Positions 24,529 through 29,350 of a stretch of 64,000 bases of DNA are shown in pieces. The translations under genes were made by a program, and so were the position numbers. The notes under the pieces are model-generated. The model was not told the origin of the DNA, searched no databases, and saw only the letters and a list, made by a program, of their open reading frames with translations. This stretch comes from an uncultured Gemmatimonadaceae bacterium. GTDB lineage: Bacteria > Gemmatimonadota > Gemmatimonadetes > Gemmatimonadales > Gemmatimonadaceae. The stretch spans positions 2,944,001 to 3,008,000 of the forward strand of contig CAVXGK010000002.1 in NCBI GenBank assembly GCA_963761305.1. Direction: 5' to 3'. How positions within the stretch are numbered: position 1 is the stretch's first letter; each line of letters begins with the position of its first letter.

Positions 24529-25581
24529 CTAGACCCGAGCCGAAATCACCTCTTCGGCGAAGCGCTCCATTTCCTCCAGCTGCGGGCTGCATTGAAGCAG
24601 CAGCAGGTCGACTCCCGCTTCGGCGAATTGCGCCGTCCGTTCCGCCACCTGGTCTGGCGTACCCACGAGCCCAGCGCGCAGTCCACGATTCGACACCGAG
24701 TAGTCCTGCAGGGTCACCTGCTGCTCGAGCTTCGTGTTGGCGATCCAGTCGCGGTAGTTCCCGTAACCCGGCGACCCGATCGCCACGTTCGTGATCCGCT
24801 CGATCTCCCTCTTGACCTCTGCCTCGGAATCGCGGACGATCGTGTACGCCGCGACGCCGAACTGCATCGGCGCGAGGTCCACGCCAAGCGCCTCGGACGC
24901 CTGCTCCCGGCGCCCGCGCATGTCGGCGATCTTGGGCGCGATCCGCTCCGGCGGATCGCCGTGCATGACGTACGCATCGCACTGGCGCGCGATCAGCGTC
25001 TTCGCCGCGTCGGATTCCCCGCCCGCGTAGATCGTCGGGCGCGGACGGCCCAGCTTCGGCACCGGCTTGGGCTCGAGCACGATGTCGTCGTGATTGTAGA
25101 ACTTGCCGTGGTACGTGAACGCCGGCTCCCGCCACGCGCCGTCCACGACGTCGAGCCACTCACGGGTGCGCGCGTAACGGTCGTCGTGCTCGTCGAACGC
25201 CGCGCCGAATCGGCGCGCTTCGTCCTTCCACCACGCCGAGACGACGTTGAGCGCGAGGCGTCCGCCTGAGATCTGATCGATGTTCGCCGCCTGCTTGGCG
25301 AGAATGGCCGGCGGATGGAACGACGGCCGCACGGCGACCATCAGCTCGAGCCGCTCCGTCACCGCCGCGAGCGCGGCGGCCGTGGACCAGGCATCCAGCG
25401 ACGGCGCGTTGATCCCCTTGATGTCGTTGAGCAACAGCTCGGCGATCAGCGTCAGATCGTAGCCGATCTCCTCGCTGCGCTGCGCCAGACGGCGCACGTA
25501 GTCCCACGACGCGGCCATCCCTTCGTCGTCGACGTTGCGCAGCCACCCGCCGAAGACCGGCAACCAGTAGCCGTATCTCAT
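24529..25581 (-). CDS. LLM-class flavin-dependent monooxygenase (SfnG/SsuD-like, probably organosulfur-acting)
   Basis: MRYGYWLPVFGG, LDAWSTAAALAAVT, IDQISGGRLALNVVS, RPTIYAGGES, LVGTPDQVAE; ATGA overlap with the upstream gene. Confidence 0.85.
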   Translation of the reverse strand: MRYGYWLPVFGGWLRNVDDEGMAASWDYVRRLAQRSEEIGYDLTLIAELLLNDIKGINAPSLDAWSTAAALAAVTERLELMVAVRPSFHPPAILAKQAANIDQISGGRLALNVVSAWWKDEARRFGAAFDEHDDRYARTREWLDVVDGAWREPAFTYHGKFYNHDDIVLEPKPVPKLGRPRPTIYAGGESDAAKTLIARQCDAYVMHGDPPERIAPKIADMRGRREQASEALGVDLAPMQFGVAAYTIVRDSEAEVKREIERITNVAIGSPGYGNYRDWIANTKLEQQVTLQDYSVSNRGLRAGLVGTPDQVAERTAQFAEAGVDLLLLQCSPQLEEMERFAEEVISARV

Positions 25582-26585
25582 GGCAAGCTCGCCTGGAACG
25601 TCGAGCGCTCCCGGGTGCGCTCGACGGTGCGGCGCGCCGGCGCGCCGCGCGAGACGAGGTAGTCGACGAGCTTCGCCCACGGATCGAATCCGATCACGTT
25701 CACCGGATCGGCCACGAAGTTGGACAGCGCGTTGACGTCGTAGAAGTAGTGTTTTCCGTCGCGGTCGTCGATCAGGTACTCGATGCCGCCGACGTCGAGT
25801 CCGGCGCGGCGCGAGATCGCCTCGACCTGCGCGATGATCTCCAGCGGCGCGTCGTAGCGTTCGACGCGAAGACCGGTCTTGGGCGCATCGACCGCGCACG
25901 CGCCGCGCACGAGCTCGACCCCGTCGGCAGTCTGGCAGGCATCCGCGGGACAGAGATCGAACGATCCCACCGCCGGGAACACCTTGATCGCATACAGATA
26001 TTTCCCGCCGAGTGTTTCGACGCGCACGATGTGGCCGTCGCGAAGCGGCGCCGATTCCTGCACGAGCGCCACGCCGTCGACTCCCAGCTCCACTTCGCCG
26101 CGCTCGATCGCGCCAGCGAGCGCGGTCTCCGACTCGTACCGCACGATGCCCGCGCCGCTCCCCCCGATGTTCGCCTTCACGAGCACCGGATAGCGCAGAC
26201 CCTTCGCCGCCTTCAACGCCACGGCAGGATTGTTGATCGCCCGTGCGCGCGGAAATGGAAGTCCGAGCTCCTCGAGGAGATCGAGCTGCGACGCCTTGGA
26301 GAGCTCGAACGCGTACACATGCGCGCCGTTCACGACCGGTACGCCGATGCGCTCGAGATGCCTCAGCCAGTGCAGCGTGTGAAACGTGGTCTGGCGATGA
26401 TTGCGGAGATACGCCGACGGGCTCGCCCGATTGAACACGAGCGAGTACGGCACGTCGTCCTCGGACGGATCGAACACGTGCAACGCGGCGTCGACGCGTT
26501 CGTACGGAAGTCCGCGCCGCTCGAGCTCGAGGAAGAGCGGCTTGAACCAGTCGGGATGTTCGTGGAAAACGGCGATCGGTTGCAT
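25578..26585 (-). CDS. ATP-grasp ligase (RimK-like)
   Basis: ELSKASQL, PVLVKANIGGSGAGI, LVQE, GGIEY, YDVNALSNF. Confidence 0.8.
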   Translation of the reverse strand: MQPIAVFHEHPDWFKPLFLELERRGLPYERVDAALHVFDPSEDDVPYSLVFNRASPSAYLRNHRQTTFHTLHWLRHLERIGVPVVNGAHVYAFELSKASQLDLLEELGLPFPRARAINNPAVALKAAKGLRYPVLVKANIGGSGAGIVRYESETALAGAIERGEVELGVDGVALVQESAPLRDGHIVRVETLGGKYLYAIKVFPAVGSFDLCPADACQTADGVELVRGACAVDAPKTGLRVERYDAPLEIIAQVEAISRRAGLDVGGIEYLIDDRDGKHYFYDVNALSNFVADPVNVIGFDPWAKLVDYLVSRGAPARRTVERTRERSTFQASLP

Positions 26586-26660
26586 GGCAGTCCTGAGTGT
26601 GGGTCGCGGGTCGTGCGGTTCGCGGGGTTTTCACTCGGGACCGGCGGCGACTTCAGGAGA

Positions 26661-26698
26661 ACAAAAACGCCCCGATCCCTTGGTGGGGAACCGGAGCG
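26661..26698 (-). terminator. Attenuator intrinsic terminator
   Basis: RNA CGCUCCGGUUCC-CCACCAA-GGGAUCGGGGCG-UUUUUGU, located between the leader ORF and the ATP-grasp gene. Confidence 0.8.
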
Positions 26699-26718
26699 CG
26701 AGTCGCTGCTAAGAAGTG

Positions 26719-26802
26719 CTAGATGCGAACGCCCAGAGCCTCACATGTCGGTTGACACATGGGACACATGCACATACAACACATGGTTTGGGCGCGGCTC
26801 AT
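26719..26802 (-). CDS. Cys/Met-rich leader peptide, 27 aa (MSRAQTMCCMCMCPMCQPTCEALGVRI)
   Basis: 6 Cys and 4 Met within 14 codons; preceded by a promoter and followed by a terminator. Confidence 0.8.
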   Translation of the reverse strand: MSRAQTMCCMCMCPMCQPTCEALGVRI

Positions 26803-26809
26803 GGCACAG

Positions 26810-26837
26810 AAGGTAAGGCTGGGTGGAAGCGCGTCAA
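26810..26837 (-). promoter_or_regulatory. Sigma70-type promoter for a leaderless leader transcript
   Basis: TTGACG-N16-TACCTT, then 7 nt to the ATG at 26802; no SD sequence. Confidence 0.7.
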
Positions 26838-26869: not shown

Positions 26870-29350
26870 TCAGAACTTCGATTCGAGGTACAGATCGACA
26901 CGGAACTGCTTTCGCGGATACAGGCCGCGAGCGACGTCGAAACGAAATAGGCCATCGAGGAACGACACGCCCGTGCCGACGCCGCTCATCGGTCGGCCAA
27001 TTTGACTGAGCTGTGTGCGATCGCCGACCCACCCGAGATCGGCGAACAGCGCTGGGCGGATTCCCGCGTCATTCGTGCCGAGCTCGGCCCGCGTCAACCA
27101 AAACGCGTTCCCGCTTTGTGCGGTATCAGGGCTCTGTCCGCGCACCGTCTGCGAACCACCGAGATACCATCGGCGCTGCGGCGGCAGTTCCCCGACCGAT
27201 GCACCCGCTGACGCCGTCAGCGACGCGGCCACGCGACCAAGTCCGTGCGACGCGGTCACGTCGAATGCGGCCCGTCCATACGCGGAATCGCCGGTCCCGA
27301 TCGCGCTCTCGAGACGCAGGCTCGAGAAGATGCGCAGCCCCTGCGGGTCGAGTCCCGACACGTCATCGATGTGGGCCGAGAAACCCAGGTACCCGCCGCG
27401 TTGCGCGACGAGGTTCGCCGGAAAATCGGAGCCGTCGACGGCGAAGTTCGTCTTTACCGCCGCGGTGCGCTCCTGTTCGGCGAACACACGCCACCCGAGC
27501 TGCGCGCCGCCGCCGAACGCGCCGTCGAGCGAACGCGTGAGGTCAACGCCCGACGCGCGATAGTAGAATCCTTCGTCGCGCCCGAACATCAGCGCCGAGA
27601 ACGAGCTTCCGAAGCTGAGCGGATGTCCCCAGTCGCTGGCGCTCACGAGACGGTTGTACGCCGTGAATCGAATCGTCTTCGTGAGGTTCGAACGCGCCAC
27701 CGAGAGCTCCACGTTGGGCTCGAGGTCGGCGAACCCGAGGCGCCCCACCGCCATTCCGCTGTAGCCGCCGCCAAGTTGCTGCTCGACCGACGCGCCGACC
27801 GAGAAGCCTTCGACGCGATTATAGCGCATGAGCGCCGGCCCATACGAGATCGTCGGCGGAGGCAGCATCGACAACCGGAATTGCAGCGGCGCCTGCGCGT
27901 CGAGCGAGAGCGCCTCCGCCTTGAGATCGGCGAGATCCTTGGCGGCGAAGAGCTCTTCGCCGGCGTCATAGATCGACGGCGGCAGATCGGGCGAGTGGGA
28001 GAGCTTCGCCGTGTCGCACGGCACGCGCAGCGCCACCGGCATCGAGACGTCGTAGCGGCGAGTGGTCGTCACGCGCACGTCGGACGTGTCGCACTGCGTC
28101 GAGCGCGGCTCCGCCTTCTTGAGTCCTTGTCGGATCGAGTCGCGCACCGCTCGCGAATGCACGCGGCTGGCCGTGCGCACGGAATCGCGCCACGCGATTC
28201 TCGCTTCTTCACTCAACGAGTCGGGCGGTTGCCCCCGACCCGGTTGAAGATGAATCATCGGCAGCGTGTCGGTGCCGTTCACGCTCGCATACTTGAAGCT
28301 CTCTTCGATCTTCACCGGCACGCGCATGAAGCTGACCTGCGCGTAGGCCTCGGCGAGTCGAAGACGCGGCAACCAGAAACGACCCTCGTGCAGGCTGTAC
28401 TCGACCGCGATCGCGGAGACTTCCGCCTTCATCGGCGTGATGAACGGCTTGACCCACACCGGGACGTCGTCCATCGACTTGGGATCGTCCTCGGTCGCCA
28501 CGGCCCAGATGTCCATCGGGACCGACAACCGGTACGCCGCGCGGACGAGCTGTCCTGAATGCGTATCGAACCACAGCGAGCCGACGCCCAGATTCCATTT
28601 CGGCTGCCGCGGCCGAACGCGCAGCTCGCGCAGCTGAATGACTTTTCCGTCCGGCAGCTTGAAGCTCACGGAATCGCCGGTCTCGTACGTGTAGTACGCC
28701 TCGGCCCCATCGGCGATCGGATGGACGATCTCGGTTTCGTCGACCTGGGCGCGGGCGATGTCACCGCCGCCGACCCACAACGGCTCGTATCCCGGATAGT
28801 AGGGGATCTCCCCCATCAGGTCGGGATCGTTCGTGTCGTTGTTGATCTCGACGTCAGCCTTGGTTCCCAGCATGGGGGCGGCGTTGCGCGCGCCCTTCAC
28901 GTCGACGTATGCGCCGACGCCTTGGCGCCACCGCACGTGCGTCGCCGCCTCGTGTCGAAACAGAAGCCGGTCGCGGCCGATGCTCCCGAATCCGAAGCCC
29001 ACGGAGATGCGCTCGTACGTCGTCGCGTCGTAGGCAACCAACGCCGAATCCTGTTTGAGGCGCGCGGCGCGTGCGGCTAGCAGCGTTATCTTGGCCGTCG
29101 CGTCCTTGAACGCCGTTGCCTGAAGCTCCGCGGTGACCGCGCGGCGCACGCCCTGGTGCCGCCGCCCACTCGCCGAATCACGCGGCTCGTCGGTCGTGCT
29201 GTCGCGAACGACGGGCGTTCGTCCGCGCCTGGCCTGCTGCGCCGGAGCCGACGCCGGGGTCGGGGGAGCCGGCGGCGTCTTTGGGGGCTGAGCGGGGGGC
29301 GAACCCTGAAAGTTCAGCGCGGCGACAACGCCGAAAACGAGGAGAATCAC
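26870..29350 (-). CDS. Outer-membrane protein with probable C-terminal beta-barrel
   Basis: Signal peptide; RYNRVEG; alternating beta-strand pattern; ends FRVDLYLESKF (beta-signal-like). Confidence 0.7.
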   Translation of the reverse strand: MILLVFGVVAALNFQGSPPAQPPKTPPAPPTPASAPAQQARRGRTPVVRDSTTDEPRDSASGRRHQGVRRAVTAELQATAFKDATAKITLLAARAARLKQDSALVAYDATTYERISVGFGFGSIGRDRLLFRHEAATHVRWRQGVGAYVDVKGARNAAPMLGTKADVEINNDTNDPDLMGEIPYYPGYEPLWVGGGDIARAQVDETEIVHPIADGAEAYYTYETGDSVSFKLPDGKVIQLRELRVRPRQPKWNLGVGSLWFDTHSGQLVRAAYRLSVPMDIWAVATEDDPKSMDDVPVWVKPFITPMKAEVSAIAVEYSLHEGRFWLPRLRLAEAYAQVSFMRVPVKIEESFKYASVNGTDTLPMIHLQPGRGQPPDSLSEEARIAWRDSVRTASRVHSRAVRDSIRQGLKKAEPRSTQCDTSDVRVTTTRRYDVSMPVALRVPCDTAKLSHSPDLPPSIYDAGEELFAAKDLADLKAEALSLDAQAPLQFRLSMLPPPTISYGPALMRYNRVEGFSVGASVEQQLGGGYSGMAVGRLGFADLEPNVELSVARSNLTKTIRFTAYNRLVSASDWGHPLSFGSSFSALMFGRDEGFYYRASGVDLTRSLDGAFGGGAQLGWRVFAEQERTAAVKTNFAVDGSDFPANLVAQRGGYLGFSAHIDDVSGLDPQGLRIFSSLRLESAIGTGDSAYGRAAFDVTASHGLGRVAASLTASAGASVGELPPQRRWYLGGSQTVRGQSPDTAQSGNAFWLTRAELGTNDAGIRPALFADLGWVGDRTQLSQIGRPMSGVGTGVSFLDGLFRFDVARGLYPRKQFRVDLYLESKF

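Follow-up and report, generated by a model that had tools for sequence, protein, structure and literature searches.

Among the classical leader-peptide attenuators, the thr leader reads two amino acids within one leader. The mechanism of this class is summarized in the introduction of Canestrari et al. (10.1101/834739), whose accessible text describes leaderless poly-Cys short open reading frames (sORFs) of mycobacteria as attenuators that act on translation. Cys leaders without terminators are described for the Actinobacteria in the available part of PMC1262725. In Streptomyces lividans, metL precedes metNIQ and encodes a leaderless leader of 29 amino acids that ends in a Cys/Met cluster, which the available text proposes to be the attenuator of a methionine operon (PMC8079986). 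The uORFC-8-2 motif before cysS in the Rhodobacterales consists of a predicted Cys-codon uORF and an intrinsic terminator in the portion of the source at hand (PMC8632094), and swaps among riboswitches, T-boxes, and leader peptides are known from the excerpted text of PMC2965389. In the open-access literature, with subscription journals mostly outside the search, no tested transcription attenuator was found for methionine, nor one for cysteine that includes an intrinsic terminator, and the open-access search likewise returned no paper on the leader family described here or on SAM-II riboswitches in the Gemmatimonadota.

The window considered here is a stretch of 64,000 nucleotides from an uncultured Gemmatimonadaceae bacterium, on whose minus strand a short ORF rich in Cys and Met codons precedes genes for an ATP-grasp ligase and a flavin monooxygenase. 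Based on comparison among relatives and on folding models, this leader is very probably a transcription attenuator of the classical type, read by a ribosome and responsive to sulfur amino acids.

Organization and conservation of the leader

The leader ORF is followed by 19 nt, the terminator hairpin with its U run, and a further 75 nt before the ATP-grasp start at 26585. The features of the promoter and ORF are:

26832..26837, minus strand: -35 hexamer TTGACG, assigned from sequence and leader conservation
26810..26815, minus strand: -10 hexamer TACCTT (TAnnnT), 7 nt 5' of the leader ATG
26719..26802, minus strand: leader ORF of 27 codons, assigned from sequence, with homologues in 25/28 same-genus loci
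26755..26784, minus strand: putative sensing run, codons 7-16 (5 Cys, 4 Met, 1 Pro), assigned from Cys/Met occupancy in 33 leaders
26745..26758, minus strand: 5-bp in-ORF hairpin over the last Met-Cys codons, assigned from RNAalifold and covariation

An orthologue of the ATP-grasp gene is carried by 28 of the 31 genomes of the genus, and the leader is complete in 25 of these 28 orthologous loci. A contig end cuts locus L013, where the 3' half of the leader is present, while L022 is an orthologous locus without a leader. In L162 the Cys/Met run is out of frame with the promoter-proximal ATG, probably through assembly errors, because the ATP-grasp gene of this locus is split too. Nine further leaders form a second clade, which brings the number of leaders to 34. 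Of 60 more distant loci, many likewise have a Cys/Met-rich sORF in front of the operon, with flanks that are unrelated, and the peptide outside the Cys/Met run shows no conservation across the order. Comparison of homologous operons had been proposed as a check in an earlier, sequence-only reading of this DNA, and its outcome favored that reading: the apparently leaderless Cys/Met sORF is conserved, its spacing to the antiterminator strand is fixed, the terminator covaries, and other lineages have SAM riboswitches in its place.

Some loci of these samples have other arrangements. In L114 and L115, leaderless ORFs ending in four Cys codons lie about 180 nt before the ligase gene, and a terminator was not found there; these ORFs, from the same order, resemble the translational type of mycobacteria. 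In L167 and L169, before a gene read as an FMN reductase, promoter and terminator are kept, and neither a leader ORF nor a riboswitch was found.

Promoter and probable leaderless start

The sequence-only reading had placed a promoter, TTGACG-N16-TACCTT, in front of an ATG 7 nt farther on that has no Shine-Dalgarno (SD) sequence. This arrangement is present on the minus strand with its spacing of 16 nt, and its -35 motif, as TTG(A/C/G)C 34-37 nt 5' of the leader ATG, is conserved in 33 of the 34 leaders. Where the operon has a SAM-II leader, the same motif lies 34-38 nt 5' of the first bases of that leader in 37 of 39 cases. The leader promoter scores 8/12, and because a consensus promoter scan of the leader called 0 sites, the promoter call rests on conservation. 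Transcription would then start at about 26802, at or next to the AUG, and the geometry of the promoter points to a leaderless start of the leader ORF. In the genome of the window, TAnnnT peaks 12 nt before start codons, with 57 of 1,585 long ORFs having it at -12, compared to 19 at -13 and 3-7 per position at -30 to -16; leaderless starts are therefore in use in this genome.

Directly upstream of the leader promoter lies the gene for an 826-aa Omp85-domain outer-membrane protein (window 26870-29350, minus strand), and 25 of 80 loci have an Omp85-domain gene immediately 5' of the promoter. In the window, 33 nt separate the stop of this gene from the -35 box, which makes read-through into the leader possible. 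A 78-codon ORF that would extend the leader upstream was set aside, as it overlaps both the Omp85-like gene and the promoter.

The Cys/Met run

The ORF had been described as a 27-codon, Cys/Met-rich frame in which five of six Cys codons are TGT. This description was borne out: the leader contains 6 Cys codons (5 TGT) and 4 internal Met codons, and is the most Cys/Met-dense of the 25,217 ATG sORFs of 12-50 codons in the genome. Its best 12-codon Cys+Met score is 9, and the next three sORFs reach 6. The genome filter took ATG starts and 12-50 codons, with GTG starts and weaker leaders outside its range; among the sORFs that it covered, none other than the leader scored above 6, no other candidate bore a terminator, and no regulon was found. 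In the 34 leaders, Cys and Met make up 331 of 985 codons, versus 2.6% in the genome, and the TGT share of Cys codons is 57% (112/198), versus 20% in the long ORFs of the genome (901/4,535).

When 33 leaders are aligned, Cys/Met occupancy is 70-100% at positions -10 to 0, except -2, and 0-18% at +1 to +10. The distance from the ATG to a fixed anchor takes eight different lengths, all in one frame, so that 34/34 leaders change by whole codons, and the stop-to-terminator lengths of the 34 leaders spread over all three frames; these frame and distance counts are partly circular, because the leaders were chosen partly by Cys/Met content and promoter distance, and related leaders are not independent. 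The in-frame Cys/Met runs vary among same-genus leaders, and most relatives have a residue other than Cys at codon 20. Tyr codons (TAT/TAC) occur inside the run in L158, L159, L008, and L021.

Whole-codon length changes in all 34 leaders, the interchange of TGT and TGC, and the Rfam result for the window leader, which matched no family at threshold (only Pxr, at 21 bits versus a cutoff of 80) and contains no riboswitch, all argue against an incidental ORF whose UGU/AUG repeats serve as a protein-binding site or as part of a ligand-binding RNA. Such a site would fit the 122 Cys codons also read in the +1 frame and the covarying hairpin inside the ORF, but it is highly improbable.

Within the attenuator reading, methionine sensing is supported by sequence comparison, because 31 of 34 leaders keep the Met that precedes the last Cys/Trp, with Cys in its place in the other three, and because the last Cys of the second clade is replaced. 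Those nine leaders have Trp or Arg there, which leaves Met as the last codon that would be sensed, and their Met codons are at least as numerous as their Cys codons. A variant of the attenuator reading, not exclusive of it, holds that the leader senses cysteine only, with the Met codons as passengers kept by repeat slippage and RNA structure. Cys outnumbers Met 198 to 133 in the 34 leaders, and the leaders of L010, L020, and L138 are nearly pure Cys runs. It can also be reasoned that methionine starvation would hit initiation too; methionine shortage should lower initiation on the leader, ending in termination in the model.

The in-ORF hairpin bears on this variant from both sides. In this structure 96.5% of cells are paired, which 0/500 shuffles reach, and one of its pairs is U-A 17 times, G-C 9 times, and C-G 8 times, never broken, with at least 6 changes on the protein tree. 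In this covarying hairpin the last AUG has its G paired, as passengers kept by structure would, but its A and U are unpaired yet at least 90% conserved. As the second clade ends its run on Met and the alternative regulators of the operon are SAM riboswitches, sensing of cysteine alone appears possible though not probable. At a guess, the hairpin is a candidate RNA-polymerase pause hairpin.

Terminator, antiterminator, and ribosome-binding site

The pairing regions of the leader are numbered in the direction of transcription:

26789..26795, minus strand: region 1 (codons 3-5), pairing with region 2 without a ribosome in the minimum-energy fold of the leader
26725..26742, minus strand: region 2, candidate antiterminator strand (codons 21-26), able to pair with 26706-26691
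26667..26699, minus strand: predicted intrinsic terminator hairpin (region 3, 5' arm; region 4, 3' arm), 13 pairs counting G-U, with covariation
26659..26666, minus strand: U tract, strong in 25 same-genus leaders
26632..26649, minus strand: region 5, a near-copy of the terminator 5' arm that can pair with region 4 or region 6
26590..26599, minus strand: region 6, the weak site for ribosome binding at the ATP-grasp gene, which region 5 sequesters in the modelled 5:6 hairpin

A conserved, predicted terminator lies between the leader and the first gene. The stem and U-tract that the sequence-only reading had seen before the ATP-grasp gene are present, and the stem covaries in relatives, with 372 of 374 cells paired and three pairs changed on both sides; on four of five measures, only 0-1 of 500 shuffles reach it. 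In the window, the 61-nt fragment that holds it folds with z=-2.67. The U tract is interrupted in the nine second-clade leaders.

The claim of a mutually exclusive antiterminator stood in part. Region 2 can base-pair with region 3 and with a portion of the terminator loop, this complementarity is conserved, and the pairing that had been named is the minimum-energy fold of 26745-26685, yet it is not unusual compared with shuffles (z=-0.91), and the 2:3 duplex of the window is borderline (p=0.055) and among the weaker ones. This duplex beats shuffles (p<0.05) in 23 of the 34 close leaders, comprising 18/25 same-genus and 5/9 second-clade leaders. In the more distant leaders, whose regions were delimited by a crude rule, only 6 of 32 beat shuffles, in a set without L114, L152, L153, and L162, without L115, L123, and L133 (no detected terminator), and with L147 not used. 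The antiterminator core helix is 95% paired but shows no covariation beyond shuffles (217/500 reach it), because region 3 hardly varies. Comparison of cognate with non-cognate 2:3 duplexes gave a mean rank of the own partner of 0.07 in the second clade, 0.31 in the first, and 0.41 in the distant set, so that the own partner is better in the second clade, with a weak effect in the first clade and the distant set. Pairing of regions 1 and 2 is uneven among relatives, with z below -1.5 in 12/25 same-genus and 1/9 second-clade leaders.

The transcript up to the terminator loop was folded with a ribosome mask, using footprints of 9, 12, and 15 nt. In the window, antiterminator pairing is 0.07 with no ribosome, 0.63-0.72 with a ribosome at codons 2-16, and at most 0.02 from codon 20. 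In 33 leaders (L083 was dropped because its arm pattern was missed), sequestration of the terminator arm is 0.81 while the ribosome occupies the last four codons of the run and 0.34 from four codons later, a drop that exceeds 0.2 in 29 of the 33. The sensing run ends exactly where the modelled antiterminator begins to fail, with Cys/Met content going from 76-100% to 0-18% there. A change of 3 nt in the footprint shifts the switch by one codon (26 leaders). Folding with and without a ribosome footprint, also suggested in the sequence-only reading, agrees with its expectation in that a ribosome in the Cys/Met run favors the antiterminator and an absent ribosome, or one past the run, does not. 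Its assignment of the Cys codons as sensors holds in the model for the five in codons 7-16, but the sixth, Cys20, is past the switch point and would not be a sensing codon, because a ribosome there covers the antiterminator strand in the footprint folding. Folded at full length and at equilibrium, the window leader makes the terminator even when a stalled ribosome is present, and any control therefore has to be kinetic, exerted during transcription. Classical attenuators likewise switch during transcription.

Downstream of the terminator, modelled pairings of regions 4:5 and 5:6 suggest a possible second lock on the ribosome-binding site. The 4:5 duplex, at -23.6 kcal/mol in the window, beats shuffles in 18 of 22 loci. 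Its pairs are formed in 88.3% of cells at a +1 slide (64.9% one column off), without covariation, because region 4 is nearly invariant. For the 5:6 duplex, 10 of 22 loci exceed shuffles (p=0.02 in the window). In the 5:6 hairpin 71.7% of cells are paired, a value above 500 shuffles, although a register shift that affects four rows inflates it in part. The modelled opening energy of the ribosome-binding site is 6.8 kcal/mol in the ON state and 6.2 kcal/mol in the OFF state for the window, and so not lower in ON; it is lower in ON for many other loci. The segment of regions 5-6 is absent in 3 of 25 same-genus loci, and those keep the terminator.

These pairings could also serve control that is mainly translational, in mycobacterial style, in which 3:4 rarely terminates and its formation frees region 5 to hide the ribosome-binding site through 5:6. 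The alternative partners of region 5, the interrupted U tracts of the second clade, and the C-terminal poly-Cys ORFs of L114 and L115, where a terminator was not found, are consistent with this. Such control is nevertheless improbable given the window stem of 13 pairs with an immediate U run, the terminator kept in the three same-genus loci without regions 5-6, and an opening energy that is not lower in ON for the window. A further candidate, mycobacterial control by direct pairing of the sORF with the SD sequence without a terminator, was rejected, as a conserved terminator intervenes and region 2 pairs with region 3.

Proposed mechanism

The preferred reading, attenuation of transcription by a ribosome on the leader, joins the modelled switch to four steps that we infer: the start site, translation, stalling, and induction. 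RNA polymerase would begin at the AUG or beside it, with a ribosome loading directly. With charged tRNA-Cys and tRNA-Met plentiful, the ribosome would arrive at the stop codon and cover region 2, allowing the 3:4 hairpin to form and transcription to end at about 26660. If either tRNA were short, the ribosome would wait in codons 7-16 and leave region 2 free; region 2 would then capture region 3 ahead of the synthesis of region 4, and transcription would continue into the ATP-grasp and monooxygenase genes. With no ribosome, 1:2 would form and the terminator would win. On this model, the operon is most likely turned on when sulfur amino acids are short.

The downstream operon

Two genes follow the terminator:

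25578..26585, minus strand: ATP-grasp ligase of the RimK/LysX type, 335 aa (Pfam CPSase_L_D2 and LysX preATP-grasp)
24529..25581, minus strand: luciferase-like flavin monooxygenase, 350 aa (Pfam Bac_luciferase), SfnG-related but not SfnG

The best NCBIfam match of the ligase is rimK_fam, at 51.5 bits and below the cutoff of 143, and the monooxygenase scores 235 bits with the SfnG model, below the cutoff of 383. The start of the monooxygenase gene overlaps the stop of the ATP-grasp gene, and 74 of 80 loci have the monooxygenase alongside the ligase. In some loci an extra gene, read by eye as an FMN reductase, stands in front. The nearest structures to the monooxygenase are 3RAO and 8VW6; the available text of PMC11588060 gives 3RAO as the nearest structure to SfnG, and no paper naming PDB 8VW6 was found in the open-access literature. 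The ligase search, in which 7,999 of 8,000 scored candidates matched, found the enzyme in 99 of 301 genomes of the order sample, including three marked unpublished on which nothing else rests, and in 33 of 151 of the phylum sample. In D. deserti the same gene pair adjoins a D-cysteine desulfhydrase and a cysteine synthase family gene, and in Spirosoma it occurs with amino-acid permeases and without an Rfam match. We consider it most likely that the operon would recover sulfur from an S-containing amino-acid derivative through ligation followed by C-S cleavage.

A small Cys-rich ORF directly 5' of an ATP-grasp gene could also encode the product of the locus, as a RiPP precursor modified by the ligase and monooxygenase or as a metallothionein-like binder, and models of MvdD-type maturases give weak matches (E 8e-4, far below cutoff). 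However, the same enzymes occur without the peptide behind SAM riboswitches in about one third of loci. The number and spacing of the Cys residues vary, Met and Cys interchange, and the rest of the peptide is not conserved across the order; moreover, a terminator separates peptide from enzymes, and the peptide has no Pfam match. A role as product is therefore very unlikely. A graspetide (ATP-grasp RiPP) precursor in particular was rejected, with the peptide absent where SAM riboswitches lead the operon and the maturase models scoring 17-19 bits versus cutoffs of 350-475.

SAM riboswitches at the same position

In other Gemmatimonadales the same gene pair is preceded by SAM-II (RF00521), and in Bacillus sp. 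N5-665 and Deinococcus peraridilitoris by SAM-I (RF00162). The presence of SAM riboswitches before these genes argues that the signal is sulfur or methionine supply and that the peptide is not a needed substrate. Together with the sulfur-related neighbours, it also gives indirect support to a role of the two enzymes in supplying the amino acids that would be sensed. The occurrence of three different sulfur sensors before one gene pair gives a function class to an uncharacterised ligase-monooxygenase pair. When 150 loci, a set that keeps a few near-duplicates, were labelled by pattern and by eye, 69 had the leader (the labels of L152 and L153 being weak), 48 a SAM-II motif, 4 both, and 29 neither; re-inspection of the 29 moved four to SAM-II, one to both, and one to the leader. 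Rfam confirmed 8 of 14 submitted loci of the SAM-II type. On a midpoint-rooted FastTree tree, no fewer than five changes are required to account for the regulator labels.

Tandem leaders were observed upstream of the operon in L028/L051, L050, L101, L105, and L161, with a SAM-II motif, a first terminator, a Cys/Met sORF, and a second terminator. On the tree, L028 and L050 are sister to the clade of the window, which suggests riboswitch loss as a route to the leaderless form. In L049, L055, L068, and L102, a conserved stretch of about 100 nt with inverted repeats, possibly a further structure, lies between the SAM-II terminator and the first gene. The genome of the window itself has a SAM-II with terminator before metH (G000:C2:2538916-2538990, L174); genome-wide, SAM-II was found only there, and SAM-I was not found.

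The most elaborate form of the attenuator reading would be a dual Met and Cys codon sensor with two locks, in which formation of 2:3 lets the terminator 3' arm capture region 5 and uncover the ribosome-binding site, so that transcription and translation open together. The covarying hairpin over the last Met-Cys codons would act as a pause hairpin that times a leaderless ribosome, and the device would have been swapped with SAM-II several times in one order via tandem forms. Taken as a whole, this combination is tentative and somewhat unlikely.

Comparison with known systems

The SAM-II and SAM-I riboswitches share the position of the leader before the same genes in other genomes, and SAM-II stands in tandem with a Cys/Met leader in some. 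In contrast, the window leader has no riboswitch, and the one SAM-II of its genome precedes metH. With the classical trp, his, thr, and ilv attenuators it shares a short ORF rich in the codons that would be sensed, a predicted set of alternative 1:2, 2:3, and 3:4 pairings, and a predicted intrinsic terminator; a leader that senses both Cys and Met would also resemble thr in reading two amino acids. It differs from them in the predicted sensing of Cys/Met, in its apparently leaderless start, and in the possible extra 4:5/5:6 stage at the ribosome-binding site. Its target also differs, being an uncharacterised ligase-monooxygenase pair and not a biosynthetic operon.

As far as the accessible text describes them, the mycobacterial poly-Cys attenuators have a leaderless sORF, runs of Cys, and a sulfur-related operon; the window leader resembles them in its Cys run and in what are probably a leaderless start and a sulfur-related operon. 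Unlike theirs, the run of the window is central, mixed with Met, and followed by an intrinsic terminator (10.1101/834739). The uORFC-8-2 motif has two Cys codons, with no Met run mentioned in the available part of the source, its target is cysS, and it is a prediction only (PMC8632094). The metL leader lacks a typical Rho-independent terminator, is read as methionine-dependent, and belongs to another phylum and another target, according to the text available (PMC8079986). The sequence-only reading knew of no described dual Cys/Met attenuator with an intrinsic terminator in this lineage; the novelty is narrower than that reading implied, as a leaderless Cys/Met leader, though one without an intrinsic terminator, was already in print for metNIQ of S. 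lividans, according to the same partial text (PMC8079986). The leader provides a compact, well-sampled test case, including for how a ribosome senses methionine when initiation needs methionine too. Compared to the described systems, it would be new in the amino acids sensed, in lineage, and in target.
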